A stretch of DNA of 63,996 nucleotides, filler included, from Globobulimina sp. (GCA_003354225.1; 7 parts of 7 records of this genome joined end to end with filler, not necessarily neighbours in it); one strand, 5' to 3'; numbered from the whole stretch's first letter, positions 1-62,640 are shown. The notes: a model not told the origin generated them from the sequence alone. Numbers and translations are program-made.

Positions 1-582
1 TTTGGAAGGAAAATAGGTTAATAATAAAATGTTAAAGGTAACATTTAACTTTTTGCTTTTCAGTTTGAAATTACTGTTTTTTACTGTAAACTCTTTGAAT
101 TTACAGTTTTTTACAGATTGTTCAAAATATTCATTTCAATATTATATTCATTTCAATGGAGCTTATGCAATAGCTGACAAATGGATGCCTGCGTCATACT
201 CTGCCTTAGGCAAAAGCAAAAAAGATCGCAAGCCATATTATTATTCTGTGGTATTATTTGGATTAACTATTTTTAAATTATTAACCACTAAATATTTCAA
301 CAATGTTGCTTGGTATATTTGTGAGTATCTTGGCATTCTTGAAAACAACTTTGGATGGAATGACGATAGTAACAAATATGGCTTTATTGAAGAATTTGAG
401 TATCATTTTGTACATAATCTGTGTACTTTTAATAAGCGCGGAATATTTCTATTCAAATATGTCACAATAATAAGTTTAGTTCAAGTGTCCGCAACCACTG
501 TGACAAGCATAAATACACCAGAAGAGCCTCATAAATTAAAATAATACGCGTGCTCTAAAAAGAAAGAATCCGACACTTCAAT

Positions 583-1316
583 GTGAATACTGTTGGCAAT
601 TCATGGATAAATCCGAAACGTCAATGGCCAGATATATTAAACATAGTGGTCGGTGTACATCGCGAAGATATTATGCTACCTCCGCAGCACCAACAACACC
701 ATTTAAATGGATATAAAAAAAAAAAGAAATCGAATAAAAATTATGAAAAAAAGAAAATTGATGCAAGTATTATTAAATTAGTGAGTGAGGAAGATGATGA
801 CAATGAAAATGGCACAAATATTTCGCATCAGAATGATTCAGAGGATGATTTAATAATAATAATAATAAGAATAATGATGATGACGATGACGATGAAATGG
901 ATGAGGCTGTTCACGAAATTGACGATGATTGTGCAAATCAAATAACGAAACTAAATAATGAATTAGCCTTTGATGTCTATACGAATATATCAGATATTGG
1001 CAGAGATAATAATAACAATAATAATAATAATAAAGAGCATGATGATACAGACAGTGTGCGACAGAATAAAAGAAGAAATATGCACGATGTTGTTAACAAT
1101 AATATGCGACTGGATGGTCCAAGATGTCAATGTTCTGGTTGCAAGAACGGAAATGATTGTTTGGTATATCACTGGTCAGTGGGTAATATTTGTTACAGGA
1201 AAAACGAAGAGTGCGTTATAAAGAAAATTGTACTCACCACCAATCCTCCGAGTGTTATAGTGTCACCTGTCGACGACCCTCAAATTAAATATAACGTCAA
1301 ATATATACAAATTTAA
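583..1316 (+). pseudogene. Low-complexity (K/N/D-rich) hypothetical ORF split by a 1-bp frameshift near 850
   Basis: ORF 583-945 drifts into IIIII/MMM, the out-of-frame reading of (AAT)n(GAT)n. One extra T at GATTTAAT gives NNNN..DDDD in frame with 897-1316, which has a Cys-rich CQCSGC tail. Confidence 0.4.
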
Positions 1317-1422: not shown

Positions 1423-1879
1423 TATATTAATTCATGTTACATTAATATTAAATTATAAATATTTGGTAAATCAAAATAATTGTAACAATTACATTATCTA
1501 AATTGTTGGCAGTGATTGGCATAAAACAATGGAGAAAGATTGGTCTGTTGAGCTGCAATATGTTAAAAGACATAATAAGGAACATTCATTGAGTAAAGAG
1601 TTAATATAGTACAGATTATACACAATATAATTATTCACAATAAAACTAACTTTCACTCAACTAACTTTCACTCAACAATGACACCTTGTCAATAATTGTA
1701 AAGGACAAAAGTCAATAAATACTTATCATTGTACGTCAAGTACGCTTTGGTGAATATCAACTGCTATAATTTGGCTATTGTCAAACCACGCACTGGTAAA
1801 ATCAAATTGCAACATCTTGGCAAGTGATATCGCAACAACTAAGAAACTGCAACAACACTTTTACGCAACAACTATCGAA

Positions 1880-3517: not shown

Positions 3518-3554
3518 GCATGGCTAGGCACCACTATTAATACCCATTGTAACT

Positions 3555-9195: not shown

Positions 9196-9295
9196 NNNNN
9201 NNNNNNNNNNNNNNNNNNNNNNNNNNNNNNNNNNNNNNNTTAATTAATTAANNNNNNNNNNNNNNNNNNNNNNNNNNNNNNNNNNNNNNNNNNNN
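9196..9295. other. Artificial contig linker (N44-TTAATTAATTAA-N44); same linker at 18479-18578, 27758-27857, 37020-37119, 46276-46375, 55391-55490
   Basis: Identical 100-bp spacer with stops in all six frames. The complete contigs decrease in size (9183, 9179, 9162, 9156, 9015 bp), as in a size-sorted concatenation. Confidence 0.98.
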
Positions 9296-14622: not shown

Positions 14623-16612
14623 TTAAAAAACATATGATCTAAATGCAGTCCGTATAGCTTTGCAAATGAATAAAATCGATTTTTTAACTCCAGCAAATCG
14701 CAATGCAGTGATAATCCCGGCAGCCTGACAAATGGGAATGCCACACATTAAAAAATCCTGTCCAGTCAACCATAAACCTGTAAGAATATGATTTTTATTA
14801 CAATCTGTCAAATCTAATATTTTATCATCAACAAATCGGTTTGGTGTTACATTCAAACCCACTGCGCCGCCTTTATCTGATTTTAAATAATATTCCAACG
14901 ACAATGGCGTCGATAAATCAATAAAATCGATTTTATCTTTGCATTTTGGATAAAATTTATATAATTTGGCAATACATTTATCAATAAATAGTTGTTTAAA
15001 CTTTTCATAATCTTTATTTACATGTTTTGTGTCACCTGATTTAAATTCGCCATTTTTATGCCATTTCTCAAACCATTTCCACGGCGCCAATATCAATATT
15101 TGACAAGTTGTTGTATTCGAATTCAGCAACTTATCATCTTTGGATTTGATTGAAGGAAAAGTAAATCCGCAACAAAAATCAATATTTTTTGACGCATCAC
15201 AAATATCACTCTGCGGGTTTTCACACCATACAAAATCATCAATGGCTTGGAAAATGGACCAATTATTCTTTTTATTAACTGCTTGATACCATAAATTTGT
15301 ATCTGTTATGCCCAAATCACGATAATTCGCAGCCAAACCAATATTACATAATAAAAACGAATATGACATTTCCAAAGCGGGCATCACAGCATATTTTATA
15401 TTTAACTGTGTCCGATCATGCTCAGTGAATAATTTGTTGAATGTATTATTGTATCCAATCCCAGAAATCACATTTTTACAAAATATTTCATCACCATTTG
15501 TCATTTTAACACCTGCAATTTTTGATTGTTTGCCATTAATATCATACAATATATGTTCAACTTTTGCGCGACACAAAACATTCCCGCCATTTAATTTTAT
15601 CATAGCCACCAATGTTTTTGCTAACTTTGTAGCTCCGCCTTGTGGATATGCACCGCCTTCGAGCGGAAACCCACGAAAAACACAGGAAGATATCATAAAT
15701 GAACACTCGTTTGGCGGTGAGCCAGTATCTAACCATAGGCCACAAACCAACGATTTTAATTTTTCATTCTTTGTCAATTCATCCAACACAATTTTAGTAC
15801 AACGACCTGCGTATTTTGTAAAATTTAACAATTTGTTTAATACATATTTTCTATATAAACGCTGCAATGATAAAGGTAAAACTCTTTGAAATATCCAAAA
15901 CGGAAATAATTTCATGGCGCAATGCATTTCATGTAATACTAAATCAATGTCATTTTTGTCTTTTTGCGTTGGGAATAATTTGTAAATATCATTTAAATGT
16001 TTTTCATTGTGTTTAATGCGGAAAAATTCAAAATTGTTCCCTTTCTGGCATAGAATCGCCTAAAACAATGCAATCGTAACATCCATCCTTTTGATCAAAC
16101 CCTAATTTTAGCCATTTAACCGGTGCCTGCTGAGTACCACAAACTAAATGCAAAATATTTTCACTTAATGGGATGGCGTAATGTAGGCCAGAATCAAAGG
16201 TATATTTATTTTTATTGCATTTATTTGTTAATTCAAATTCGTGCGTACCACCACCAGCAACGGAATGTTGTTCCAATATTAATACTTTGTAACCAATGCG
16301 TGATAATAATACGCCGCAATGTAAGGAGGAGGTCCCACTGCCAATGATAATCACATCGTATTTGCTTTCATTACATTTATTGAGATTATATCTGTTTGTT
16401 ATTAGATTCCGTTTATGTAATAACTCGTTGTATTGTGTTTCATTTATATCTGTCGATGACAGGCATAACCACCATGCTGCTATGGCAGCTATGCATGATA
16501 TTGTGATTAATATTATCCGCGCAACTAAATAATTGCAACAATAATAATAATAGACACTGCAAAATATGCATATGACTATCGGAATTAATGTAAGTGAGGT
16601 GTTGCATTTCAT
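14623..16612 (-). CDS. All-trans-retinol 13,14-reductase / phytoene desaturase-like FAD oxidoreductase (1-bp frameshift near 16030)
   Basis: YDVIIIGSG Rossmann motif, LEQHSVAGGGTHEF, FDSGLHY, GGAYPQGG, STPLS.EYY, GLWLTGQD. The intervening sequence is open in the downstream frame. Confidence 0.85.
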
Positions 16613-18284: not shown

Positions 18285-18578
18285 AAATAAACTAACCAAA
18301 TAAGAGGCAAATTTATAATGACAAGAAACCATTAATTTCTTTTTTGCCGATTGACAACCTTTAGTTTGTATTGATTTGTATTGATTTGAATCACTGCGAA
18401 TTAAAAGCTTAGATGTTACCTTTAGTTTGTATTCATTTGTATTGATTCACTTACCGTATTTTTCCTTTTTATTTTACCNNNNNNNNNNNNNNNNNNNNNN
18501 NNNNNNNNNNNNNNNNNNNNNNTTAATTAATTAANNNNNNNNNNNNNNNNNNNNNNNNNNNNNNNNNNNNNNNNNNNN

Positions 18579-27757: not shown

Positions 27758-27857
27758 NNNNNNNNNNNNNNNNNNNNNNNNNNNNNNNNNNNNNNNNNNN
27801 NTTAATTAATTAANNNNNNNNNNNNNNNNNNNNNNNNNNNNNNNNNNNNNNNNNNNN

Positions 27858-36939: not shown

Positions 36940-37119
36940 CACAGTTGTAATTTTCTCTCATTTTCAGACATCGCGTTTTGAAGCACTCAATACAACTAAA
37001 AAGAACAAATATGCAATATNNNNNNNNNNNNNNNNNNNNNNNNNNNNNNNNNNNNNNNNNNNNTTAATTAATTAANNNNNNNNNNNNNNNNNNNNNNNNN
37101 NNNNNNNNNNNNNNNNNNN

Positions 37120-38650
37120 CGAATTCAATGCTATTGGATACTGCAATGGGAGCTTCGCTTAATGTATCATTTAAATACAGCGCACATAACTTGCTACATT
37201 GTGATAAATCTATTTTAAATGTATTACCTACAAATTGCAAACGAATAAACTCGATATTGCATGGAAATGAAATGCTTAAATTGTCATTATTCACCACTTT
37301 GGAAGGTATAATGTTATTGATATAACACTCAAATACCATCAAATTATGGCATAATTCGATCATTTGTTTCAATTTATTCTCATTGAATTGACTTAAATTA
37401 GTTAATTCTAAATATTTTATGCACTGTAACTCTGACGCAGTATTTATCCATGATTCTAATATTAAATTATGTATCGCTTGATTTATAGCGATGTGATTTA
37501 ATAATTTATACAGTTTTAATTTATTTAATAAATACCATTTACAGCCTTCTTTGTCATTTATATTATCAATATACAACGATTCAATGTAAGTGCATGATTT
37601 ATTTACTATCGCCGCAAATAAGTTATTCTCCGCATTTTCTTCATTGATATGACTCAAATTCATTTTGATCTCATCGTAGGACTGACCAGAATTTAAATTA
37701 ATTAATTTCAAGCTCTCATAATTTCTGAGATTTGATGGTTTATACCGCGGCGTATTACCGCTATTCGCACGCGGCGTTGAGGCACCACTCAATTGACTGA
37801 AATACGAGCGACGGTTTATTTTCTTCATACTTTGAATGTTCCATTTCTTACAACAGTGCCATAAAAAGGGCACTTTATTGGTGATATCATCAATGTTTCG
37901 TATTTCGTATTTAATGACATTTGGACCGTTTAATAGAAGGTCTTCGTCAAACTGTCGACGAATGGATAATGAATCATTGCGTGGCGGCATGAATGGTGTA
38001 CCCACTGCTTTATTAATGATATAAAAATGTCGCAAATCATGATTTATAACAATCCATAATACAGCAACAGCTTCGTTCGAATTCTGTAATAATACGCGAT
38101 CCAATGTCGTTTGAACAGTATATTGTCTGTAGATGGATGGATATTTGTTCATAATCACACGAAATGTGCGCGAAATGCATGGTATTTTAGGGTAATGGTT
38201 GGATGGTAGAAACTTTATGATGTTTACTAATATATCATCACAGAATATCTCTTCCAATGAGGCTGCTTGGAGGTATAATTGAGATAACAATGATCTGTTG
38301 CTGTTCGTTGCGGTTTGCTTTGGTTTTTGTGTTTTTCGTAAGTTTTTTAATTGATTTGATAAGATTTTCTTCAATTTGTTGATTGGTAATAAATGGTGTA
38401 TTAAATTGTGTAAATCGTAATATGTTTTTGCTCCATTTATTTGTTGATTTAAATAACTAAAAATAGAGTCTTGGTCGAATATTTTTGAAGATGGAATTAT
38501 TTCGGTCATATTGTAATGGTCTAGATCTTGGTCTGATTGTTGGGTCAAGGATTTGTTTAACAGCGTGTACGTGTGCTTGTTCCTACGGTGGGTTTGTTTG
38601 TGTTCGGTGTAATTTGCTTCGAATTCGTCAAAAAAACATGAACAAAACAT
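37120..38650 (-). CDS. F-box-like + LRR-like protein (3' truncated)
   Basis: SLEEIFCDDILVNIIKFLP..IPCISRTFR resembles an F-box; LxxLxL repeats toward the C-terminus. Confidence 0.6.
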
Positions 38651-38799
38651 TGCTATTGCATGTCATGAAGAAAAGTTTTTTGTTGTTAAATAAAACAGAT
38701 TTTCGCACATGATTAATAAATCCGAATACGTAGAAATGAATAGCTATGTACTGACCGAACGAAAATATTTATTTACACTGTTTTTAATCAACTGCTTTA

Positions 38800-45975: not shown

Positions 45976-46375
45976 GTTGTCTCGTACACGGTCTTTCGGA
46001 CCAGTTTTTAATAAATATATTGAGCAGAGGTTGAGCTATATCAATCGTTCTAAATACCCATAAAAAGCGTATACATTTCATTCGACAATTTGTACTGCCA
46101 AAAATTAAAAAAGTCAATAATTGGATAAAAATGTTTCTAGCTCATGACATCATTCATACACATAGTCTGCAAATTTTGTGCACACAATGTTTATAAGCAG
46201 CATATAAAATATGATCTGTTCCTTTCAATATTGTTTCAAACAAATTATTTAATAAATCCATAAAGGTTCCACCAGNNNNNNNNNNNNNNNNNNNNNNNNN
46301 NNNNNNNNNNNNNNNNNNNTTAATTAATTAANNNNNNNNNNNNNNNNNNNNNNNNNNNNNNNNNNNNNNNNNNNN

Positions 46376-47300
46376 CTGCAGTCACTGCTTTTTTTAATTT
46401 TTGTTTTCTCCGCGATGATCTCTGTCGTTTTGGCGGTGGTTGACCGGTACTTTGACTCTGTTTCTGTTTATTATTCCGATTTGTGTTTATTTCATCAAAT
46501 TTCCTTTTCCGTGTATTGACATTGACAGTCACCACATTTTTGTGTGTTTCATGCCGAGCCACATTTGGTGAGTTTGAGTCGGATTTCAGCACTTTTTTTT
46601 TATGCCTTTTGTGTGGTTTTTTTACCGGCGTTAAACTGGCCGATACGCTCACATTTGAAGGGTGATTTTCGTTTGTTTGCATTGATGCTTTTCGATTAAA
46701 TCTCAGCATCGCAGTCTTGTGCGCAGATGAATTATCCGCACATATTTTCCTTATAATGGTGGGTACGCTGATTACACCGTCCTTGGTTTGCAGGTTTGTG
46801 AATGCTTTTTGTTGAATATTGACATATTTACCACTGCCATCTGGGAAGTCAATGGTTATATTTTGACTATTTGTATGTGGTAATTGTCGTATTTTTGCAT
46901 TGTAATAGACAGTGGTGAAGGAAGTGTCTGCGTTTTGAAACAATGCAAATATGGCATCACCATTTTTGAGTGGTTTGTGTCTGTAATTGGGATCATCCCA
47001 AGCGACGATTAAGTAGACATCTTTCCAGTATCTATGGGATGGCTCGCCTTGGCCGTCAATGTCCTCAAACTTAACACTGCGTAGTTAGTGGGTATAGAAT
47101 AAGGAAAATTGGGAGTAGAGCAAGGAGAAATTATATGCATACTAGTTAGCATCAAAAGTCATTATGGTTGTTAAGGCTACACCGCTGGCTAAGGTTGGAT
47201 CGTCGCGCGAGGGGAGAACAGTGCATCCAACGACGGATTGTTTGTGGAGACGGGTTGGATCGAGTGTAATTGCATTTTTCTTTTTCCTGTGTGCCATGTT
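46376..47300 (-). CDS. Sgf29-type tandem Tudor-like protein with a basic NLS-rich tail (5' end unclear; intron about 47077-47143; 3' truncated)
   Basis: Spliced reading YVKFEDID..GDAIFALF..TTVYYNAKI..ITIDF resembles Sgf29 YEVDDID..VLALYPQTTCFYRA.I..YSVLF; PPPKRQR NLS. Confidence 0.55.
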
Positions 47301-47550
47301 CAATTTGAATTATTGATAGTTTTCAGAGTTAACATTTTCTTTTCTAAGATATCCAGCGTTGTCAGACTTGTCAGCATCTTTGAATTAAGCACTGAAGTAT
47401 CTTGTTTAAATCTGCCATGATTTGGATTCATTGTATTTGGTTCATTGTATTTGGTAACTATCCTATCCTATATGTCCTACTATATTCATTTGTTTGTTCC
47501 CATAATTTCATGACGGTAATAAACCAGATGTTTATATATCACATACCTGC

Positions 47551-47573
47551 GCCACGTATAGCCGAGTGGTTAA
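47551..47573 (+). pseudogene. 5' fragment of a tRNA (acceptor arm + D-loop/A box)
   Basis: GCCACGTATAGCCGAGTGGTTAA ends abruptly 5 nt before the intact tRNA. Confidence 0.5.
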
Positions 47574-47578
47574 TTTAA

Positions 47579-47651
47579 GCCGACATAGCACAGTGGTTAA
47601 TGCATCTGCTTCGTAAGCAGAGGGTCGCGAGTTCGAATCTCGCTGTTGGCT
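47579..47651 (+). tRNA. tRNA-Thr (anticodon CGT)
   Basis: Acceptor GCCGACA/TGTTGGC; anticodon stem TCTGC/GCAGA with loop TT-CGT-AA; T arm GCGAG-TTCGAAT-CTCGC; T-run follows. Confidence 0.96.
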
Positions 47652-48088
47652 TTTCTTCAAAAAATTTTAAATAATTTAAAACACCTATTTTTTTCTATCA
47701 GACATTTTAATTCTCAGTCATGTTTTAATGGATCAAAATACAATAAAATTCACTCAAATATTCATAAAAACACACATAGCAAATCTTTTTAAGAATACAC
47801 AACAAATTATATCAAATTAATTCTTTAAGAAAATTAATAAATTATGAATTGAGAATGAGAAATTATGAATTGAGAATACCTCAAATTTAAAAATGCCAAA
47901 ATTAGCGGTGTATTTGTGTTTTGAATGTTTTTGTTTCCATTGTATCATTAAATGACATACTTTTACTTGGCAAAACCGTTTTTAAATTTTTTCAAAAATT
48001 CCCTGATTTTGTGTCACACTCAAAAACATCCATTCTCAGTCCATTCTCAATCCCATTATTTTAATTTTTTGTTTTTTTCAGAAAAAAA

Positions 48089-51000
48089 ATGGATCGAAAG
48101 AAAGCACCAACAACAGTTCGCAAAACGGGAAGATCACGGCAGGCAGTGAAATCAGCGAAAAAGGCACCAAAAACAGCTCGCAAAACTAAAAAATCACGGC
48201 TGCCAGCGAAATCAGCGAAAAAATCAACAAAAACTAATTGGAATAAATTAAGATGGATTTCTGTTGGATATGCTCATTTTGGCGCAACTTTAACATATGG
48301 TCGTCAGGCTGGTGCATATCTTACATTCCATTCATTTACAAAGAGGCAACAAGACAAAAGTATGTGTTTAATTTGTAAAATGTGTTTGTAAAAACTAATT
48401 GTTTGAATATAAGGTACCAATCGCCAGAATATGGCACAAACAACGGATACACCCAAAGAACGAATGGCACAAACATTGAAGCAAATATTTGAAGCATTAA
48501 AAAGTGCACATAAATTACCAGTAAAACTTGAATATAATGATATGAAACACGGATTAAGCGCAGAGAATATCGCAAGTCACGCTCAACCAATGATGCAATT
48601 GGCGACAGATTATAATGCAGCAATTGATGATATTAAACAAGTAATGGATGATAAAGGTACATTAAATACATTAAATAACTATTTATGGGATGGTAAAGGT
48701 ACATACCCCGTCTACCAAGCAAATGAGATTGAAAGTTTATTGGAAGCAATACATTGTATGATCGGAAACGAAACAAAACAATTAAATGTGAAAATAGAAT
48801 CAATCCATGATGATCATGAGAAGTCTTTGGATTTGGAATTTATGAATTCAAATATTGATAAAAATAAAAATAAGAAAAGAAAATTGATTAAAATAAAAAC
48901 GGAATTTGAAACAGAAAATGACAGTGATACCGATGATGATGGAACACATGAATTTGATGAAAAATATGAATCGCAACCACCAAATACATCAACTCCGAGC
49001 ACACAAAATAACAATGATATGAGTTTAGAAACAATTGAGAGCGATAATGATGAAACCACTGAATCCATCTCGTCATTACATAATGTGTCCGGACATTCAC
49101 CATACGTTTATGGACAGGATATCAACGGTATAATATACATTATAATATACATTTTTTTATATAGATATATTTATATATATAGCATATAAAAAACGATTAA
49201 ATAATGCTCGGGTGAAAAATTCCGTGCTTGAAAGCAAATTAATTGTTTTAAATATAACAAATCGTCGATTACAACGTGATATTAATGATTATGAAAAAGA
49301 AATTGCAAAATTTGAGAAAGATAAATGGGGGAAAACAGCAAAAGAATATTTAGAACATTTATATATTTTGCCAGCACAAAAACAAAGCGTTGTTTTTAAA
49401 ACAATTTATCGTAATAACCGATCATTTTTTGATTCAATATCTGATGATAAAAACAAAAACAATAAATCAGTAAAATATCTCCCTGCTGACACATCATTAT
49501 CACCCATTGAATTTGATCGCAAAATGGAAAAAGTTGTTGGTATTAAATTAACAAAAATGACTGATAAACAAATGCAAATTGCACGCAATATTCAACAAAA
49601 ACCATTAAATCGATTGGATCAATACGGAAATAGAAAAATTATTCACAGCAAACAACGTAATATGTCTGAATTAACGACAAAAACGGAACAAAATAAATTA
49701 ACAAAAGAGTGGTTTAAACGCAATTATAATTTTAAAATAATACATAATAAATATAACAATGAAAGAGATAAAATATATGTTAATCATGCATGTGTTGCTT
49801 CAATCCCTGGTACCTTTAGAGATGCATATACATTGACTGTCACTTCAAATTCAACACAAGGTCATAATCATCATCACGTTGAAGAATTAGATACAAAATA
49901 TATAACAAAAGAATATCCCATATTAGTTAAATTGCGATTCGATGCAGGCTGTGGTAAAAAAATACATCAAGGCAAAAGCTTTTTTTTTATTTCAGGACAG
50001 TTCTCATATTGGCGTGACACATTAGATTCGTCAATAAATACATTATTCCCAGTCTGTGCATCATTAAAAAGTGATAGTTTAATTGATAATAAATTGTTAT
50101 TGTTAAAGGTAATGGATAAGGCAAAACAAATAAAATATGAGCCAGATTTTAAAGATATCAATCATTCCGGAGAGTCAGTAATTAGATCCTTTCGAGATGC
50201 CATCATTTTGGTATGTGTCACTCAAAAAAGTTTTAAGTCAGTTTAAGTACATTTTGTTTAGTTTGAATGTCAACTTTGAATGGCAACTTTGTGCGTACGT
50301 CACGCTTTATTTTTAGTACATATTTTGTTTAGTTTTGGCGCCTTATTTTTGTCCTATAAATTGTGTATTTTTTGTATAGAAAATTGGGGATCAAAAAGGG
50401 CAAAATATATTTCTGCATCATGGCCCATATTCGCAGGTGTCTGCACACCCATTATTATCTTTATTAGTTCCGGCAAATGATGATGAATTATCGTATGTGT
50501 TATTTGGGTATGAGCAAATTGGTATTGATCGCAGAAATTATGGTATGCTTCGTGGCAAACCCTGTTATATTTGGCCAGAAATTGAAGAACAAATTAAAGA
50601 AATATATGAAAGTAAAGAAGATGTTGAAGAGAGACCGATATTTTTAGTGATTACAATTCATAAATATTTGCAACCAAAAATTGAATCTATTAAAAAAGCG
50701 GTAAAAAAAGTAAAAAATTATGATATGATGTCCGAAGATGAAATAATCAAAGCAACTCTTCAGATTTCACAATCTGAAACGTATAGAATTGGATTTTGGG
50801 ATTGCCCGGAACCTCAAGATTTTGAGTTGATTGCCATCGTAAAATTACATTATAAATTACGAGCTGGCGCAGACGGTGTTAATTATTATTTTAATGGTCT
50901 ACGAAGAATATTCAATGACAATCCAGCAAAGACATTTAAATTAATACAAACAATATACGGAGTGAAATTAGAAGGGGAGAAATTTGAAAAATTGCATGCA

Positions 51001-51996
51001 AGCAAAAGCTGTAAAAATAAAAATATTTCTGTTGGCATTACTGGCAACAAAACAAATATTTTTTTAACAAATATGGACACAATAATTGCAGAAGACACAA
51101 AAAGAGTTAGCGCTGCTGGATCATTACGAAAACCAATGAGGTCGTTTTGTATGCGATCACTCAAATATTTTTATGACATTTCTCAATTTTTTGATCTATT
51201 AAATAAAGATTCAGCCGATATAAAATACGATGATCCGTTTGTGACTGCGCTACAAACCAAAGGGGAACAATTTTTTGATGACGCATATGATCATTCTTAT
51301 TATTACATGAAACCAACTCTCGTTAATATGTACAAAATGGTGCCGGGTGCTTATAAATATTTGAAATTCTATAATAAAATACATAATGTAAATATTATTG
51401 TCAATGATTATTGCGACCAAGTTATGGAAGCAGGAATTAAAATGTTTGCAAACGCAATACAATTAAGCAATGGTCAAGAAAATCAAATCGTTTCTGTATT
51501 AGAAAATTTAATTATTTGTCAATTAGCATCAATCCAATATAATAAAAAATCATTCCACCAAACTGACACTGATTTAAGAACACAGCCATTATATATTGGC
51601 CCACCTGATATGACAAAATTTAATCACGATGAAGTTTGTCAGCAGGAATATATTGCATTAACCACAAAAAAAAATATTGAGGCATTTACGTTTGATTTAA
51701 GTGGGAAAATGAACGATTTATTAAAAATTGCACAAGAGTATGAAAATGGTGATGTTGTAGATTTTGATAATAGCGGCGATACGGTTTTATCCAACGTTGA
51801 AAATACATTAAATAAAAAAAATCAACGTAACAAAAAATCAACGAAACGATCCAGAAAAACAAGCAATAAAAATAAAAATGAAAATGATTCAGATCCTGAT
51901 TATTCACCAAGAAACAAACAAAAGAAACAAAAAAAAAGAAAAATTGCATCAAAACCAAGAAAACCAGGTTTAAAAACAGTTAAATTTCCATATTAA
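48089..51996 (+). mobile_element. Divergent RAG1/Transib-like DDE transposase gene (about 1209 aa); exons 48089-48359, 48414-49127, 49183-50210, 50380-51996
   Basis: Three GT-AG introns give one open frame. Collinear motifs: KLRFDAG, SSINTLFPVCASLKSDS, IGDQK, LHYKLR, ITGNKTNIF, YYMKPTL, YCDQVMEAGIK. Confidence 0.6.
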
Positions 51997-52158
51997 TTTA
52001 TTTATGTTTTATTGTGCTTTGTGGATTACATATTGATTTGTTATTTAATTTATTTTTTTGGTGTGGTATAACGCCAAAAAAAAAGAGTGGTTCTCTCCGG
52101 ACTGTGTGAGATCCCTCTTATGTTATACCACTGCCATTTCGATGAGAAACACTGTAAA

Positions 52159-52315
52159 CTGTTTTTCTTTGGTTTGCTTCGGTAGAATTGGTTATTTTAA
52201 GCAAATACAGATGCGTCTATATCCGTTGAATATGTTTTTACAATTCCCGGCTAGTAATGTGCAAGTTTTAAAAACTTTCAGTCAGTCAAAGATTTAATCT
52301 TTAAATTTAACAATG
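52159..52315 (+). promoter_or_regulatory. About 155-bp leader block duplicated at about 53117-53270; each copy ends at the ATG of a different ORF
   Basis: ACTGTTTTTCTTTGGTTT..GGTAGAATTGGTTATT..GATGCGTCTATATCCGT..TTTCAGTCAGTCAAA..ATGTC in both copies. Confidence 0.8.
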
Positions 52316-52897
52316 TCTGTGTCAGTCACGCCGGAGCCAAACAAGCATCGCCTGGAGACATCCGCACATGTGGACGTATTGAATCGGCGGGAATGTAGTG
52401 ATGATGAGCCGTCATTAAATGGATCTCCAGCGAATTCGGCGCCGCCAAAATGTATTAAAATGGAATCCCCATCGCCGAGTCCCGTTACTTATTGGCCGAT
52501 GACCGCGGAAATGCAGGAATCATGGGATCGAACTGAAAGACAGCTCAACGAGAGTCAGAGCCGTTGGGATGCAATTGAGAAGAAAAAAAGAATGCGGCAT
52601 ATTCTGAGGAACCGTATCAATTTGATATCATCGGAACCGGATGAAGCGGCCCCGGAGGACGAGAGCAAGAAAGCGGAGAAAGAGGAGGAAGATGAAGAGG
52701 AATATCACCCGCCAGACAGTGATGTAGAGAGCGAGAAAGAGGAATATCGGGCGAGAAAGAGAAAGAGAGTGAGAAAGAGACGTCGGGCGAAAGAGAGTGC
52801 CAAAGAGAGTGCGCCGGCGAGGAAGAGACGAAAGGGGGTGGATTTTAATTGTGGGACACCACGCTCCCTTATACAGCCGCGGCGAAATCATAATTAA
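52313..52897 (+). CDS. Disordered acidic/basic protein with NLS-like clusters
   Basis: GC-rich intronless ORF between AT-rich flanks; E-rich tract and RKRKR clusters. Confidence 0.65.
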   Translation: MSVSVTPEPNKHRLETSAHVDVLNRRECSDDEPSLNGSPANSAPPKCIKMESPSPSPVTYWPMTAEMQESWDRTERQLNESQSRWDAIEKKKRMRHILRNRINLISSEPDEAAPEDESKKAEKEEEDEEEYHPPDSDVESEKEEYRARKRKRVRKRRRAKESAKESAPARKRRKGVDFNCGTPRSLIQPRRNHN

Positions 52898-53049
52898 GTG
52901 ATATTAAATATTGCCGCAATCAAATGCGATCAAATGCGAATTGCGGTAATATGTTTAAATGAGAATTGCATGTTCTTTTTATTATAATGTTTAATTAAAT
53001 ATTGTTTGCATGTTCTTTTTATATTTGCATTAATTAAATTGTAATTACT

Positions 53050-53124
53050 TGTGTGAAACTAAAGTGCAAGGATAATTTACTGTTTTTGTGTGAAACTAAA
53101 GTGCAAGGATAATTTACTGTTTTT
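53050..53124. repeat. 37-bp tandem duplication containing GAAACTAAAGTGCAAGGATA; perfect 20-bp inverted copy at 53948-53967
   Basis: Direct reading. Confidence 0.92.
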
Positions 53125-53267
53125 CTTTGGTTTCCTTCGGTAGAATTGGTTATTGTAACCAAAAATAGATGCGTCTATATCCGTAGAATATGTTTTTACA
53201 ATTCCCGGACAGTAATGTGCAAGTTTTAAAAACTTTCAGTCAGTCAAACATTTTAAATTTTAAAACC

Positions 53268-53807
53268 ATGTCAATCACCGTCAACATGATTGATATTCCA
53301 TCGAATCTGCGCGCCCCCACACCAACAGTATTACGGCCATCGCCGACACCATCAACTTCGTCCGGCAGATCGACATCAACATCGTCCGGCAGATCGACAT
53401 CAACATCGTCCGGCAGCTCATCCGGCAGCTCATCAACGAACAGCGGATCCGGCAGCTCGACATCAACGAACCGAGAATCCAGCTCTTATTCGGATGGGCA
53501 ATCATCAACAACCGGGCATGCAATTGACACTCCCGGATTACGCGAAGACGCAGCATTTCTTTTGCAAGTATTTGGTGTCGCGGAGGCTACATCGGGGGCA
53601 AATTCCAATGACAGCGAATACTTCCCTCCAAATTATCGCCGACCAATACAATCACGGCGACCAATACAATCACCGCGACCAATATCATTTAGTCGCCGAG
53701 CAATACAATCACGCCGACCAATACAATCACGCCGACCAATACAATCACGCCGACCAATACAATCACGCCGACCAATATCATTTCGTCTCAATCAATACAT
53801 GCAATAA
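53268..53807 (+). CDS. Ser/Thr-rich low-complexity protein with (STSSGRST) and (RRPIQS)n repeats
   Basis: ATG at the end of the duplicated leader; 21-bp and 18-bp coding tandem repeats. Confidence 0.55.
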   Translation: MSITVNMIDIPSNLRAPTPTVLRPSPTPSTSSGRSTSTSSGRSTSTSSGSSSGSSSTNSGSGSSTSTNRESSSYSDGQSSTTGHAIDTPGLREDAAFLLQVFGVAEATSGANSNDSEYFPPNYRRPIQSRRPIQSPRPISFSRRAIQSRRPIQSRRPIQSRRPIQSRRPISFRLNQYMQ

Positions 53808-54053
53808 AATTGTATTTATTTTGATCGTTTTGTGTTTTGTCTCCTTTTTATTAATGTTCTTTTTATTACAATATTAATTAATGTTCTTTTTTATTAATGT
53901 TCTTTTTATTAATGTTGCGCTATTAATTAATTTAATTAAATCGATTATATCCTTGCACTTTAGTTTCGATCGTCTCAAAAGTCTCAAACATTTTAGTTTA
54001 GTTTAGTTAAATATATATTAACATTTTAAAAACTGTAATTTACATTAATTACA

Positions 54054-55222
54054 ATGGCAGAGGCAAAGGCAAACGATACGTATACTATCGACGCCAAGGT
54101 GGAAAGAATTAAATTAACGGAAGAAGAGTTGTGGCGGTATTCAAAGATGAAATGGAAAGATTACAGCAAAAAAACAATATATTCATTTAATGTAAGCGAA
54201 GAAAGCGAATTTTGGAATGGTACTTTTATTTTTTTGGTATACAATTCCCGAAAGCATACACAGCACACACCACGATAACAGATAGTTGTAGCAATCCCGA
54301 TGCTAAATATCCTGTGCGGTACAGTGCATTCCGTGGTTATCGATTGAAGGCACAAACTGTTAAGAAAGTTGCAATTTTAGGGCAACAAATGAAGAAATGT
54401 AAAGTTTATTATCATGTTATTTATCCATTGGACATGGCACATTCAATATGGACACAATCGGTGGCTTCCGGCAAAATGTATGAAAGATTAAAAAGATTGC
54501 CGCATGTCAACCAAATGGGTCAAATAAAGGAGGATCATGGCAGAGAATTTAATAATACATTAATGACATTAGTTGCTGAAACAATTCAACCAAAATTTAA
54601 TCCAAATACTGTAACAATTTTATCAGTCCATTTACGATGGGATGACCACATCAGTGGCGATGGAGGCAAAGCGGCACACAAAGATATGGCGTTGGAAGGT
54701 GCCACTATGATGACCTGCGCTATTGTCAAGCCACCGCACGTGAGATATTCAGTGAAACACCGCGCTTTGGGGGTAGGTTGGGTTGAATGTGAGCAAGGCA
54801 CAGCATACAGTGTGGTTATGATGGACCAATGGATGGAAGTCGGCCATGCATATAAAGCTGAGATTGTAGGAAAAGAGAATAAAGGAAAAAGCAGCAAAAT
54901 ATTGAAGTTTATGATTGGCGGTGTTGTGGAAGCAGACAATGGTTTTTTTTCCACTGCGAATCTGCGGAAATTGGGTATGGATGAAGATGGAACATTGGCT
55001 GATATTAATAAGGTATACAAAGGACATACTATTTGTGAGAAAGATATGACATTGGAGGAATACAGAAAAGCCACCAATAAAACTAATGCAACTTTACAAC
55101 ATATTAAAAAAGCTGCAATCCATAAACAACGGCTAAATAACTTAAAACAAAACCAAAAAAAAAGAAAAGATAGCGATGCGGAGAGTGCTGAACAGCCTGC
55201 GACAAAAAAGAGAAAACATTAA
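54054..55222 (+). CDS. Hypothetical protein with a C-terminal NLS (1-bp frameshift near 54210)
   Basis: Overlapping ORFs 54054-54278 and 54212-55222 fuse if one T is added to GAATTTTGG; ends PATKKRKH. Confidence 0.55.
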
Positions 55223-55956
55223 TGTAAACTTTGTAAAATCATAATTTAATCTTTTTAATTTTTAATATTTCTCAGAATTATGAAAAATATATGCAATGAT
55301 GAAAATGCATAGAAAAAAAAGTTGTATGAATGAAATCGAAAAAAAATTCACCACGGTACAGTTCAATACTTGCAGAGTCATGAAATTCATNNNNNNNNNN
55401 NNNNNNNNNNNNNNNNNNNNNNNNNNNNNNNNNNTTAATTAATTAANNNNNNNNNNNNNNNNNNNNNNNNNNNNNNNNNNNNNNNNNNNNTCATTGTGGA
55501 ATAAATGGCCGCATACATTCAGTTTATAACTACCTTCATTTGCTTCAATTTCCATTGGATTTTCCCTCTGCTTTTGTTTGTTGTTATGGCTGAGCACTCA
55601 TAAAAAAATCTGAATACTTTGAATCCAATTACCGTTCGAAAGTTGAGAATTTCTGAGTAATACTATGATTTGTTACTCAACTCAGGAACCGTTCACTGAG
55701 CACTAACCAAATAATTTCTGAGCATTCCAATATACTTTTCCATTGTGTTAATCATCATATGTAGCCATAATAATATTGCTTCAATCTGTAGTACCCCCCA
55801 TCGTACCTTCCATACATGACTACAATCCCAACTGTTATGGTCCAACTATTCTTGACTGCAGTTATGGTTCAATTAGCTGTTTATTAAACTTTGTGATATT
55901 GCTTGTATTTCTGAAGGAAACTAAGTAGGAATTTCACTGAGACATTGCCGCTTAAT

Positions 55957-57414: not shown

Positions 57415-60400
57415 TTATTTACCCTTACCTTTATTTTTTGGTCTCTTTTGACGTTTTTTTGGTGGAATATTACTGTTAATGCTATTTGAAATAGATTTTG
57501 ATGATATTTGTGTTAAATGATTTGGATTTGATCTATTCCTTTTGTGGCCTGAGATTGATTTTTTATTGATTGAATGTTGTGTTTTTACTAAGGTCCTGAT
57601 ATTATTGGTATTATGTATTACAGGCTGATTAATTGGTGCTTGTTTATGATGATTAATGTTATATTTTTGCTGTACAAAATTAATAGATTCACCAATAGAT
57701 TTCATTATAGGTTTCATTGTATTTAAAGGTTGTGGGTAAAATTTATTTATATTGGTATCAATATTCGTATTCACATGATTTCTCATTGCGGAATAACTAT
57801 TCACTGTATCTGGTACTTTGGACATATCATTTACTGGCAATGGAATATTTGGCGTATTATTTACAATAAAATTGGCACTAAATGGATTGATTGAAGTGTT
57901 GTAATTATTTGGTACAGTTGACTGTGATCCCATTGCTTGAAATGAAGGGATTGTTGGAATTGTTGGAATTGTAGGAATCAATGGTATTGCTGTTGTTTGT
58001 GTTGTTGTTGGTATCTTATTATTTGTATTTGTGTTGGTATTATTGTTGCTATTAAAGGCAAACTGATTGAACATATTATCGACTGGCTTATTATTCATAT
58101 CTCGCTCCATCATTAAAATTCTTTGTTTGACTTTATTATTTCCCATAAACTGTTTATATCTTTGTTTAGATTGTTGATTATATTTAGTTTTTATTTTATA
58201 TCCTTTTTTTTGCAAATTTATCAAAGTTTCAATACGTGGAGGTTCAATTAAGTTGGTGACGGTATTAATTTTATCTACACATAAAGCATTTAATATTGAT
58301 TCACGTAATTTTAAAAGCTGACATTCCTCCCAAACAATCCAATTTTTATCAGTTTTGTAACTCTGTTTAAATGTTTTAATATCATTCAATTTTTTTGCAA
58401 TCAAACTCATATTTTGTTCTTTGCTAGATACTGATTGTGGAACTTTTACAACATGGTTTCTATTTGCATATGAATGGAAACTTTCGCCCGTATTGGCATT
58501 TCCGTATAAAGTTGGATTTGTATTCAAACGATTATTTAATTGTGTGATTAAAGTTTCATCGGATGTTTCTCGCATCCAACGTTTAGTGAACGCTGCAAAC
58601 GATACTAAAGGAATATTGCAATTATTGCCAAATTCATTCCAGTTACAACAAAAAAAGAAATAGATCGATATCCATTCACCAAATAGATGCTCTTTATTTT
58701 GCCACATTGGTTGTGATATTTTACGCTGTAATTTTTGGCATAATGTAACAAAAATGAATCGCGGAATTGATGGCAAAGGTATATTGAATGTTGTTTCATT
58801 TTCTTCATCAAATATTTGCAATGAATTTGCCATATAAAAACTTGGTAGCGCATGAAAAAAAATAAATGTTCCAATAAAATGAGTGGCAAAATATCCTAAA
58901 TTATCAATACAATGACTTAAAAGCTCGAATGTTTTATCACTAAAAATACAGTCAAATTCTGTCGCATCATATTGATATTTCATATCAACAGTTTTAGACA
59001 ATGCCCTAACAAACATTTTCAATTCTTTACGGACTTGAATATAATGTTTTTGCCACAGAGAAACCCAAAATAATTGCTTATATGCATATACATTCATAAT
59101 ATATGTATCATTTGCTATGATTAATTTACCTCGTTCACAACACAAATGTGTTTTACTCACGATTTTCATCAACAAAGCGCGATCACCATGTGCTGGTATT
59201 TCTCTCCAGCGTTTGGTTACATGCCAACCGCACTCACGTAATGTTATAATAATCTCAATCTCATTTGACAACATTAAGGTTTTTCGTAATTGGTGAATTT
59301 TGGGTTCAAGTCGCGAAGGCAAATTCTTATGAGTTGTTGTGTTATCAATACAGATAGAAAAAATGAATTTTTTAATGCCTTTAGTAATACTATGGGACAA
59401 TACTGTTTTATATACATCAATCAAAGATTCAATCATATATTCTCCGTTTTCGACTGGCACAAAGCGAGGATTATGAACGGATTTTCCGTTTTGATTAAGC
59501 ATTGTTAAAAAAACTCCGAAAATGTTTTCTTTTTCAGAACAAAGAGCAGATGCTTGTGAAAATGTACCATCAAGATTAACTAAAAATAAAAGCAAATCAT
59601 TCTCAATTTCAAGACCTTCAAGTAAGGCATCATCAAATGATTTTTTAATTTCTTTAGTCCAGTAAGTTGCATAACATCTTAAAACAAATGCTTTCAATGC
59701 GTTGCGTTGAGGAATTAACGATTTGAAAGCAGTACGTAAATCAGCTGCAGAAATAGATTGGAAAAATTCAAGTAATCGTATTCGTTGAGAGTCATTGTTG
59801 ATTTTTGTACATATTTTATCAATCAATAAACACCGATAAAATTTGGAAACTGCATGTTGTAAATCAAAAATACTCGTTCTTTTCATAAATGTTTCAATCA
59901 AATATTTTTCAAAACCTTTTGAAAATAATTGATTGCCACTCAAAACACTTGTAATTTTACAGGAACACAGAGTACGTTTTGAACAAATTGTTTCAGTATG
60001 CTTTTTATTTGAACAAATATATCTTTGTTTATTAAGCTGTAACAATGCAGTCGTACTGAAACCTACAGTATCTTTTTCAAAACCATTTTTACTGACATCA
60101 AAAACACACTCATCATGGCTGCAAGTTGGGTTTTTTAGTGTTAACAAGATTTTATCGCCGAGGAGGAACAGTATGACGTTTGTAATGGAACTGAACTTAT
60201 TTGTTGATTGAGGATTGGTTTGTAATAATGCGGCTAATTCCGTTTCAATTGGATTATTTATTGCTAATAATTGTTGATTTTTTATCGGAGATTTGTCGGA
60301 TTTTTTGTTTGTATTTAATACATAATACCATGGAGTCATGGAACATGTCAATAATAAGCCACTAATAAAACCATGAACCAATGCAATGTGTCTATAACTT

Positions 60401-62640
60401 GTTGCACCATTTTGTAATTTGGTTGGTTTTTTATGGACATTACATTTATTATCTTTATTTGAGACACAATAATGTCCCAAATTTTCGGCGCAAAATAAAT
60501 CACGAAAATGTTTGGTAGTAATATCTTTTACAGATTTGCTTTTTATTTTTGGTAATTTGTTAATTATGGCAGTTTTTAACACAGGAATTGCATTTATTAT
60601 TTCAACTAAAATAATTGTATATAATTTTAATATATTTTGCAATGGTTTTTGTATTTGAAATGCTTTTTTATTGGATTGGAAAGATAATTTCCATTGATTT
60701 GTATCATCAGACGATAAAAATGCACTTTTTGGGGGTTTTGATTCTTTAAAAACATTATAATATATACACCAACAAATTAAATTGTATTCAGTGTCAGATC
60801 CGATGATTTTGGTATTTTCAGAGTCATCAATGGAGAGTTTTAATTGATTCAATTTATCAATAATAACATCTTTATAATGTCCTGTAATTCAAACAGTTTT
60901 CATGGTTATTATTTGGGATTAAATATATTATAATATGTCACACCTGATTCAACAACAATTTTTCCATAATATTCGGAAATATTACAGCAAAGTGTTTGCA
61001 AATCCTTTTCAACACAATTTATTTCCTCATTATTAAATTTTAAGTCTGTATTATTATTATCACTTATTACTGGCATATTATCTATATATAAATTTGAGAT
61101 TATATTTAAAACAAACACTAAAATGTTTAGAATATACCTGCGGTTTTTATAAAATCAATAAATATGCTTAAATCCGCCAAATTAAGCCATGATAAATCTG
61201 AAAATGTGGGTAATATATCATATGTTGGTATTATTGCATTATTACTGGTTTTGAATTTTTTATTAATACAAATTGATAATATCGAATCCACCAATGATCG
61301 ACCGGTAACATGTGATCCTAAAACAAATAATAGATCCGGCTTTGTACTGAGTTTATCCATTGCAAATTGAATAAATTTTGTAGAAAATAAATATTTGCAA
61401 CTATTGGCCATTGCTTTAATTGATTTGCCAATATTTACAACAGTTGTCTCTGTACATTTTAGTCCATCCGGAACAATGGTAAATAATATGTTAACTCCTG
61501 TTAACATCACAAATACCGCTGCGACACGAATTAATTGATCAAACTCCGCAGTATTTATACCAAATGTATTTGCCTGTGTATTTTTTAAACGTTTTAATTT
61601 CAGAAATAATAACGTTTTTCAGAAATGTTTGTATTTTTATAATCTGAATTTTCAACACCAAACCACACAAAATAAAATCAGAAAAATATTGAGATAAGTC
61701 ACCTTAATTTTGTCTATCGCAGTCTGCACTAATTGCTCGCAACAAATGCTATCTGTGATTAAACGATAGAATTCTTTCATAACATCAGATAATTTAGTTT
61801 GTTGCTCCGAACAGTGACTAAGTTCATCTACTAAGTTTTCGAATGTCTTCATCATTTCTTTTGGCTGAAGACAATAATTGTAAGCAACAGCAAAACGGTC
61901 ATTATCGTATTGTTTGCTGATGTATTGACTGCAGCACGCTACGGATATTTTACATAAGTCTTGTACATTTGGGGCTGATTCGGAAATGCCACACAACGTC
62001 CAAATAATATCATGTTCGCGATGCGTTGATTTAATTTGAAATGATTTATGTGTATTCCAATAATCTGAATAAGTATATGGGAATTTCATGGATTAGTTTT
62101 GTGCATATCGACACAAAACAGATTAAGCAAATGTACTTAACCCCGTATATTATGGAGACATTCATCATTTATTTCAGTCTCAATGAATGTAATCGAATCT
62201 AATTTATTTGGATCTGATGATTTATTAATTAATGGAATATTATAATCACAAATATCAGTATCAGCAATTAATTTTGGTGGAAGTGAATTTGAATTATTTG
62301 TATTTGGGTCACCATATGTCTTTGCTTTATTTATTTGCGAATATGTATAGGTATTGGCACATTTGGTACCATTGGCATTATTTTGTGTATTTGGAATTGC
62401 TTTTTGTGGATTACAATTATATGAATATGTAGTTGTTGGTGGTAATGCAACCATTGTTTGTGTAATGTGTTTATGTGTATGTGCTGGTGGTGAATATCTA
62501 TTATTATTATCATGTGATTGCATAGTGATAGAATGAGAATCACTGTGTGAATTTGTGTTAGTGTTTGTGTTTGTATTTGTATTGGTATTTTGTATTTGGA
62601 TATCACAATCACTGTCACCAATGTCACTTTCTTCGCTTGC
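57415..62640 (-). mobile_element. Large multi-exon Mutator/MULE-like DDE transposase gene (main exon 57415 to about 60880; upstream exons tentative)
   Basis: VNLDGTF (D1), ICIDN (D2), ECGWH (CxxH), NANTGESFH (E) in MULE order; Cys/His clusters N-terminal; N/T/P-rich tail with NLS. Confidence 0.6.

Follow-up and report, generated by a model that had tools for sequence, protein, structure and literature searches.

The window analyzed here, a single strand of 63,996 nucleotides (nt) from Globobulimina sp. (GCA_003354225.1), carries on its plus strand, from an ATG at 48089 to a TAA ending at 51996, a gene whose predicted product resembles, in fold and in the placement of conserved acidic residues, RAG1, the enzyme cutting antibody genes, and Transib. 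The best explanation of the locus as a whole, to which a probability of roughly 65% is assigned, is that the C-terminal half of the protein (about residues 565-1060) is a zinc-less DDE (Asp, Asp, Glu) nuclease module of RAG1/Transib architecture. An earlier reading of this DNA, made without database searches and referred to below as the sequence-only reading, had proposed such an affiliation, and many of its individual claims can now be set beside computational results.

Rebuilding of the splice model demonstrated that four exons, joined via three introns of 54, 55, and 169 nt, each bounded by GT..AG and with a GC content of 9-30%, yield one frame of 3630 nt comprising 1209 codons and a terminal stop, with zero internal stops; the single frame of about 1209 residues previously proposed is thereby borne out, and the codons for D, D, and E lie at 49941, 50389, and 51427 exactly as had been reported. 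The longest open frame of the region spans 538 codons, as compared to a maximum of 119 codons among 200 shuffles, and the coding potential of the region therefore exceeds chance. Sequencing data covering the locus consist of one DNA run, collinear with the assembly including the introns and without joints, with no RNA run listed for the locus. What the locus holds is a genuine gene, intact and interrupted by introns, with a predicted product of 1209 residues. Its features are given below, where D1 and D2 denote the first and second Asp and E the Glu of the proposed catalytic set, "rows" are those of an 11-row alignment of the window protein with ten relatives (one of which is designated P0005), pLDDT is the predicted local distance difference test score, and RAG1 positions are those of the mouse protein, in which D600 and D708 are here taken to be the catalytic Asp residues.

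48089..48359 (+): exon 1, residues 1-90 plus one base; begins with the ATG and encodes a strongly basic N-terminus
48360..48413 (+): intron 1, 54 nt, GT..AG, GC 20%
48414..49127 (+): exon 2, residues about 91-328; acidic stretch, no domain recognized
49128..49182 (+): intron 2, 55 nt, GT..AG, GC 9%
49183..50210 (+): exon 3, residues 329-671; its final ~118 residues presumably make up the first half of the RNase H-like domain and include the D1 candidate and a fourth acidic residue
49941..49943 (+): codon of D582 (the D of RFDAG), candidate first catalytic Asp, in gapless alignment with D29 of P0005
50073..50075 (+): codon of D626 (the D of KSDS), possible counterpart of the second residue of the RAG1 DEDE tetrad, aligned with a Glu in P0005
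50211..50379 (+): intron 3, 169 nt, GT..AG, phase 0, three codons upstream of D2
50380..51996 (+): exon 4, residues 672-1209 and the stop TAA (51994-51996); the part common to all ten relatives
50389..50391 (+): codon of D675 (the D of GDQK), predicted second catalytic Asp from family conservation; the structural alignment starts within about 1-3 residues of RAG1 D708
50380..51549 (+): exon-4 residues 1-390, which in the predicted model superpose on RAG1 from about 704 to 1000, namely the D708-to-E962 insertion domain and the start of the C-terminal domain
50848..50874 (+): LHxxLRxxD motif (H828, R832, D836), the strongest family signature, with H, R, and D each in 11/11 rows
51427..51429 (+): codon of E1021 (the E of VMEAG), predicted catalytic Glu; E in 9/9 covering rows, and model residues 342, 349, and 352 pair with RAG1 954, 960, and 963
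51787..51993 (+): C-terminal tail, disordered and lysine-rich (pLDDT <50), ending in a short KP.LK motif common to several relatives

Within exon 1, a 60-nt direct repeat (48098-48157 and 48158-48217, 82% alike) doubles a lysine-rich N-terminal unit of 20 residues. Neither a RING nor any N-terminal zinc module was recognized in the exon products by Pfam.

When the exon-4 product was compared exhaustively by HMMER with 1.84 billion cluster representatives, ten proteins were identified at E <= 1e-3 (best E 3.3e-39, 31% identity), all of which match exon 4 only. Two of these, P0001 from Bolivina argentea and P0004 from Nonionella stella, are foraminiferal proteins from EukProt transcriptomes, while the other eight come from environmental or read-archive contigs. 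Maximum-likelihood analysis of the 11 rows groups the window protein as sister to P0001 from Bolivina (support 99/97), and a foraminiferal transcript as closest relative fits the protist setting given by the sequence-only reading. The resulting tree of the exon-4 family, in which three or more clades diverge deeply and foraminiferal rows fall into two, accords with, but is no proof of, a foraminiferal or at least rhizarian source of the window. The family is small, lacks annotation, and is internally very divergent, and at least two of its members are foraminiferal. Other searches added little: a word-indexed protein search returned no match for exon 4 and, when run with a family alignment, only P0005 itself; the ESM Atlas placed RAG1-labelled clusters at ranks 11, 14, and 29 of 30 for exon 4 (scores 0.85-0.86), which serves as a lead only, and gave no usable match for exon 3; and no genomic locus of a relative was confirmed in metagenome contigs, searched with the family alignment and exon 4, or in viral contigs, searched with the family alignment.

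The starting points of the relatives display a pattern of their own. Six of the nine that cover D2 (P0002, P0006, P0007, P0008, P0009, and P0010) start 0-23 residues ahead of it and P0003 starts ~40 residues ahead, with only P0005 continuing upstream to D1. The called open reading frames (ORFs) of the relatives may all begin just past a shared intron position, comparable to that of intron 3 in the window gene, three codons before D2.

The extent of these matches bears upon the gene model itself. A partly wrong model, with exons 1-2 (or 1-3) derived from a separate transcript or otherwise spliced and the protein shorter than 1209 residues, is unlikely, though by no means a remote possibility. 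The restriction of the HMMER matches to exon 4, with just P0005 reaching exon 3, and the lack of a listed RNA run would fit such an error, whereas the three junctions keep the frame at canonical GT..AG boundaries, the introns are short and very AT-rich, no stop intervenes, and P0005 is continuous across the region of the exon 3/4 junction. An error of this kind would be compatible with the nuclease reading of exons 3-4.

The alignment of the family revealed a set of conserved positions, given here in exon-4 numbering. Firstly, D4 and K6 (D-x-K) occur in 10/10 rows with a residue there, of which 9/9 are safe, the fragment P0001 having probably been placed at these positions by chance, as its HMMER match starts at query residue 111. 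Secondly, H157, R161, and D165 (LHxxLRxxD), as well as R175 and K214, occur in 11/11 rows. Additionally, G222 (NGxK) is found in 10/11 rows, P322 (PT) in 10/10, and E350 (ME..NK) in 9/9. The five exon-4 motifs singled out by the sequence-only reading (D-x-K, LHxxLR, GNK, PT, and ME...K) are those conserved in the family alignment, and because the family conserves the same ones, these motifs are more than a chance resemblance.

The predicted structure of the exon-4 product provides the principal link to RAG1. The model, produced by AlphaFold2 with no templates from the 11-row alignment, has a mean pLDDT of 70.2, with values of ~85 over residues 20-350 and below 50 for residues 1-9. When compared to the PDB by Foldseek, the model retrieved RAG1 or HzTransib at 10 of the first 16 ranks, with the RAG1 family first and probabilities of up to 0.92. 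Realignment of Foldseek's list with VIA-align placed RAG1 chains at ranks 1-14 (Z 10.6-11.7, root mean square deviation (rmsd) 4.1-4.8 Å, 228-280 residues aligned), followed by HzTransib at Z 8.3, P element transposase at Z 7.0, and unrelated chains at Z <=7.6 over ~100-136 residues.

An exhaustive VIA search of 48,161 PDB representative chains, conducted independently of Foldseek, again placed RAG1 and RAG1-like (RAG1L) chains at ranks 1-5 (Z 10.8-11.4, 237-280 aligned residues). These include the RAG1 chains 6dbi_C (Z 11.4, rmsd 4.3, 275 aligned), 6cij_A (Z 11.1), 4wwx_E (Z 11.1), and 6oem_A (Z 10.8), as well as the amphioxus BbRAG1L chain 6b40_E (Z 11.3, rmsd 3.9, 263 aligned, 13% identity). 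HzTransib occupied rank 6 (Z 8.2, 175 aligned); the best unrelated chain reached Z 7.2 (129 aligned), with none aligned over more than 149 residues; P element transposase reached Z 6.9-7.0 at best over the two VIA searches; and Hermes, at Foldseek rank 27, was absent from the 50 VIA rows listed. Similarly, the model of P0005 matched RAG1L and RAG1 at VIA ranks 1-5 (Z 9.7-11.1), with HzTransib at 7.2 and all else at <=6.8, and retrieved RAG1 at Foldseek ranks 1-12. A RAG1-like fold, for which the sequence-only reading had suggested a check by AlphaFold and Foldseek, is therefore the best structural match for two family members, and the better match to another superfamily that would have spoken against the proposal was not found among the 48,161 chains. 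Because the gap to background amounts to 4 Z units, the aligned length is about twice that of the background, and two aligners and two family members agree, the match to RAG1 is argued to exceed chance. In the model, the insertion domain between D2 and E has the topology of the RAG1 zinc-binding (ZnB) domain. A predicted complex of exon 4 (residues 1-400) with exon 3 (150-342), computed without the family alignment, scored 0.00, the fold of the partner being itself uncertain.

The ranges over which these structures superpose locate the conserved acids relative to RAG1. Residues 4..390 of the exon-4 model pair with 707..1000 of mouse RAG1, 7..342 with 707..954, 3..349 with 600..960, and 3..352 with 599..963; in the P0005 model, in which the conserved Asp and Glu are residues 122 and 509, residues 116..509 pair with 702..960 and 116..515 with 702..965. 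E962 of RAG1 is named in the PDB titles of the matched structures. According to these superpositions, the family-invariant Asp and Glu fall approximately, within a few residues, at RAG1 D708 and E962, and the landing there of acids picked without reference to RAG1 is considered the most persuasive of the arguments for a genuine relationship.

The candidate for D1 lies upstream, in exon 3. Over the ~118 residues before D2, exon 3 and P0005 align without gaps, with a local score of 52 as compared to 26.6 +/- 4.4 for shuffles, 0 of 500 of which reach 52; D582 of the window protein pairs with D29 of P0005, and both proteins have a D1-to-D2 spacing of 93 residues. Comparison of exon 3 with P0005 by BLASTP returned nothing at E < 1, and the addition of exon 3 to the family by MAFFT misaligned, the D1 comparison being limited to stretches just before D2. 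On the strength of this pairwise alignment, D582 may be put forward as the first catalytic Asp. The term "DEDE tetrad" is applied to RAG1 in one published account (PMC10629977).

These residues weigh upon the possibility that a helical protein that is no nuclease matched RAG1 by chance. Helices predominate in the model, no Foldseek E-value reaches significance, and a Z below about 13 can reflect a common arrangement among helical proteins. Such a coincidence is nonetheless highly improbable, given that the Asp and Glu identified as invariant purely from the alignment land at the superposed ends near D708 and E962, that an extra Asp occurs 93 residues upstream of D2 in both covering proteins, and that the same family is ranked first by two aligners for two family members.

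According to two published accounts, all described RAG1, RAG1-like, and Transib members keep four zinc ligands, which are thought to organize the large insertion domain (PMC1131882, PMC10629977); the four Zn-coordinating residues are called essential components of the RAG1(L) core (PMC10629977) and two cysteines of Transib, in an SxxCxxC motif, are called perfectly conserved (PMC1131882). Neither a CxxC nor an Hx(3-5)H occurs in exon 4, and the only Cys or His column present in >=80% of rows of the 11-row alignment is H157. The four ligands, namely the CxxC after D2 and the HxxxxH before E, are absent from the window protein and likewise from each of the ten relatives, so that an absence first claimed for the one protein extends across the family. 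With the four ligands absent, the insertion domain must therefore hold by packing alone, and its model is confident (pLDDT ~85 over exon-4 residues 20-350) without any metal.

The same absence lends some weight to an explanation in which the family belongs to another DDE superfamily without a solved structure (CMC/Chapaev, Novosib, Kolobok, or an unnamed one), its likeness to RAG1 reflecting a shared RNase H core and helical insertion plan. No sequence-level link to RAG1/Transib is available, the ligands that mark RAG1/Transib are missing, and P element transposase aligns over 221-236 residues, indicating that the general plan alone can give long alignments. This explanation is nevertheless judged distinctly unlikely: RAG1/RAG1L stand 4 Z units above the P element (11.4 versus 6.9-7.0) and above every unrelated chain, they are collinear over the whole D-to-E span in two family members, and Hermes (hAT) does not appear in the 50 VIA rows.

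Several observations weigh against assigning the protein to the RAG1/Transib group. No Pfam family was found at E <= 1 for any of the four exon products or for the ten relatives; and neither phmmer with exons 3 and 4 nor a family profile built from exon 4 and its relatives retrieved RAG1, Transib, or another transposase from PDB sequences at E <= 10. Sequence similarity to RAG1/Transib is, in these Pfam and PDB-sequence searches, not found for the family. Structurally, Foldseek gave no match at E <= 0.001 for the exon-4 model (best E 0.12, TM-scores 0.2-0.29), and its best E for P0005, 0.24, is not significant; only 11 rows stand in the alignment behind the structural models; and mostly helical models may reach Z ~13-14 in VIA-align without kinship. 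Moreover, structural aligners give ranges and not residue pairs, such that the D and E equivalences are accurate to a few residues; residues 1-121 of P0005, the part containing D1, have a pLDDT below 50 in its model; and P0005 is the only detectable relative of exon 3. Finally, the absent zinc ligands count against strict membership. Because two defining features, the zinc ligands and sequence similarity, were looked for and not found, the family is not filed strictly within RAG1/Transib.

Taken together, at the levels of fold and catalytic residues the RAG1/Transib reading is supported, while at the levels of sequence homology, D1 structure, and mobility it is not yet so. The protein presumably shares common descent with RAG1 and Transib and is presumably catalytically active. 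In the mechanism proposed, an RNase H-like core would carry D582, D675, and E1021, and perhaps D626; a long, mostly helical domain between the second Asp and the Glu would superpose on the zinc-binding domain of RAG1; and, in the manner of RAG1 and Transib, the enzyme would nick DNA with two metals and then form a hairpin or carry out strand transfer. The "new branch" with a zinc-free insertion domain envisaged by the sequence-only reading gains support from the fold match, the conserved D and E, and the absent ligands. What is new here is a family beyond the reach of sequence models, possessing no zinc ligands and matched better by RAG1/RAG1L than by HzTransib; also new are the short introns and the lack of recognizable transposon ends at the locus.

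RAG1, RAG1-like, and Transib enzymes have been traced by sequence, and the exon-4 family escapes those sequence models. If the link holds, the known range of the RAG1 fold would reach Rhizaria and the zinc site would not be needed for that fold; the family would, in addition, provide an outgroup for the early history of RAG1/Transib and a small scaffold, free of the metal site, on which to study the chemistry.

Comparison with characterized systems places these likenesses and differences in context. Mouse RAG1 (4wwx, 6cij, 6oem) and BbRAG1L (6b40) resemble the window protein from D2 to E, being collinear from ~D708 to ~1000 with Asp and Glu at matching ends, and differ from it in that the window protein is without detectable sequence similarity to them, the four Zn-coordinating residues, a RAG2-like neighbor, and ends resembling recombination signal sequences (RSSs). 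The D2-to-E spacing, 346 residues in the window protein, is longer than the 254 residues of mouse RAG1. The stretch aligned between the window model and RAG1/RAG1L is longer than that of HzTransib, which would fit a long-form insertion domain (alpha11-alpha12); this long form, in the alpha11-alpha12 region, is kept by RAG1L and Subgroup I Transib (PMC9435367). HzTransib (6pqn) shares the same architecture and is the second-best family in each VIA search (Z 8.2-8.3 for the window model, 7.2 for P0005), and the window gene is, like Transib, a single-gene unit without a RAG2-like partner. In contrast to RAG1, HzTransib aligns with a lower Z and over a shorter stretch (153-187 residues), and its SxxCxxC motif, terminal inverted repeats (TIRs), and target site duplications (TSDs) are absent in the window.

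RAG1-type enzymes have been described from unicellular eukaryotes before. Searching by sequence, Tao et al. (2022) recovered homologues of RAG1L from 173 eukaryotic species; they also reported a complete RAGL transposon from the alga Aureococcus, RAG1L fragments in "several other primitive eukaryotes," and Transib-like proteins in bacteria, fungi, and plants (PMC9435367). AanRAGL of Aureococcus anophagefferens is, like the protein proposed here, a RAG1-type enzyme in a unicellular eukaryote; it was found by sequence homology, its genes consist of single exons, it has RAG2L as a partner, and its ends show both asymmetric TIRs and TSDs of 5 bp (PMC9435367). None of these features is seen here. 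The literature surveyed, which does not extend to the supplementary species list of PMC9435367, contained no account of a foraminiferal gene resembling RAG1 or Transib. The Drosophila P element transposase (6p5a, 6pe2) also has an RNase H core into which a large domain is inserted and aligns over 214-236 residues, with Z values (6.5-7.0 for the window model, 5.4 for P0005) no better than those of unrelated helical proteins. Domesticated protist transposases such as PiggyMac of Paramecium, which belongs to a different superfamily (piggyBac), provide a functional analogy only, being intron-bearing and TIR-less with catalytic residues kept.

The surroundings of the gene must be read with the construction of the window in mind. 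The window is a chain of ~9-kb contigs in descending order of length, joined by linkers of the form N44-TTAATTAATTAA-N44, and genes on either side of a linker are not genomic neighbors. The linkers are located as follows.

9196-9295, 18479-18578, 27758-27857, 37020-37119, 46276-46375, 55391-55490: linkers between contigs

The contig containing the gene spans 46376-55390, and GC content is ~30%. Comparison of the flanks (47085-48100 against 51990-53200, about 1 kb on each side) yielded only AT-rich 9- to 19-mers as inverted repeats; the sole CACAGTG of the contig sits within a tRNA-Thr gene, with no CAC-type, RSS-like heptamer elsewhere there; and neither 5-bp TSDs nor TIRs were seen for the one copy in 9 kb of context. 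These repeat and heptamer searches agree with the earlier statement that RSS-like terminal repeats are missing from the locus. No paralogue of the nuclease gene occurs in the other contigs of the window, and no kelch or RAG2-like neighbor was found at E <= 1 among the ORFs at 52298-52897, 53187-53807, 54191-55222, and 46377-47084(-), the last of which has a weak SGF29 Tudor-like match. The 343-residue ORF at 54191-55222 was considered as a RAG2-like candidate and rejected, having no kelch or any other match. In the only DNA run with the locus, word depth along the contig, which is not to be read as copy number, is 8-12 across the gene and 3-11 on either side of it, as compared to 751 in the tRNA bin, and thus offers no hint of an element present in many copies.

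That the gene encodes the transposase of a still or recently mobile transposon, with ends that are too short or divergent or that lie beyond the 9-kb contig, is a serious, if on balance rather doubtful, alternative. D, D, and E are intact in the window protein and in every covering relative, the presence of foraminifera in two of at least three deep clades is a pattern typical of transposon lineages, and another protist, Aureococcus, has RAG1-like transposons with asymmetric TIRs and 5-bp TSDs (PMC9435367). Against mobility, the flanks offer no inverted repeat beyond the AT-rich 9- to 19-mers and no CAC-type heptamer outside the tRNA gene, the window holds no second copy, and the word depth of the gene (8-12) is about that of its flanks (3-11), again with depth not equated to copy number.

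Because terminal inverted repeats and a second copy in the window are lacking and the gene is set between a tRNA gene and ordinary genes, an immobile copy, be it a domesticated nuclease or a stranded intact transposase gene, is favored slightly over an active transposon; this lean rests on 9 kb of context, and the division of the family into at least three deep clades, as is often the case in transposon families, also counts against it. Foraminifera have unusual nuclear cycles, and a more elaborate and rather improbable scenario is that they hold an ancient branch of the RAG1 fold, independent of zinc and passed on vertically, that was domesticated as a host DNA recombinase, acting, for example, in programmed genome processing. 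If the gene is domesticated, a RAG1-type nuclease would have been tamed a second time, independently and outside animals.

The tRNA-Thr(CGT) gene upstream, at 47578-47652 (+), ends 437 bp before the ATG. The word depth of its bin, ~750 in the locus-bearing run and 226-775 in two sister runs, points to a highly repeated or shared sequence. Downstream of the nuclease gene, a perfect 20-nt inverted repeat (53055-53074 and 53092-53111 on the plus strand versus 53948-53967 on the minus strand) brackets ~0.9 kb containing the Ser/Thr-rich, repeat-bearing ORF at 53187-53807; its left arm lies within a 37-nt tandem duplication (53049-53122), and the sequence has 3 matches versus 0 expected, with none elsewhere in the window. 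The bracketed segment (53055-53967) may be a small foldback element or one resembling a miniature inverted-repeat transposable element (MITE). Additionally, a 148-nt direct repeat (52158-52305 and 53116-53263, 91% alike) lies just upstream of the ORFs at 52298-52897 and 53187-53807, as if it were a duplicated promoter or leader, and an 18-nt tandem repeat of ~8-10 units (53619-53805), inside the latter ORF, encodes repeats of the RRPIQS type.

Elsewhere in the window, ORFs of 1157, 478, and 514 residues at 57415-60888 (-), 14623-16059 (-), and 37121-38662 (-) match no Pfam family at E <= 0.001. The other contigs encode proteins commonplace in eukaryotes, among them an M1 aminopeptidase, a rhodopsin-type receptor, an acyltransferase, a Vint-domain protein, and a retrotransposon of the non-LTR (long terminal repeat) type, the last being a 1718-residue ORF at 3528-8684 (+) with endonuclease, reverse transcriptase, and RNase H domains, ahead of which lies a 587-residue ORF at 1754-3517 (+) with no Pfam match.

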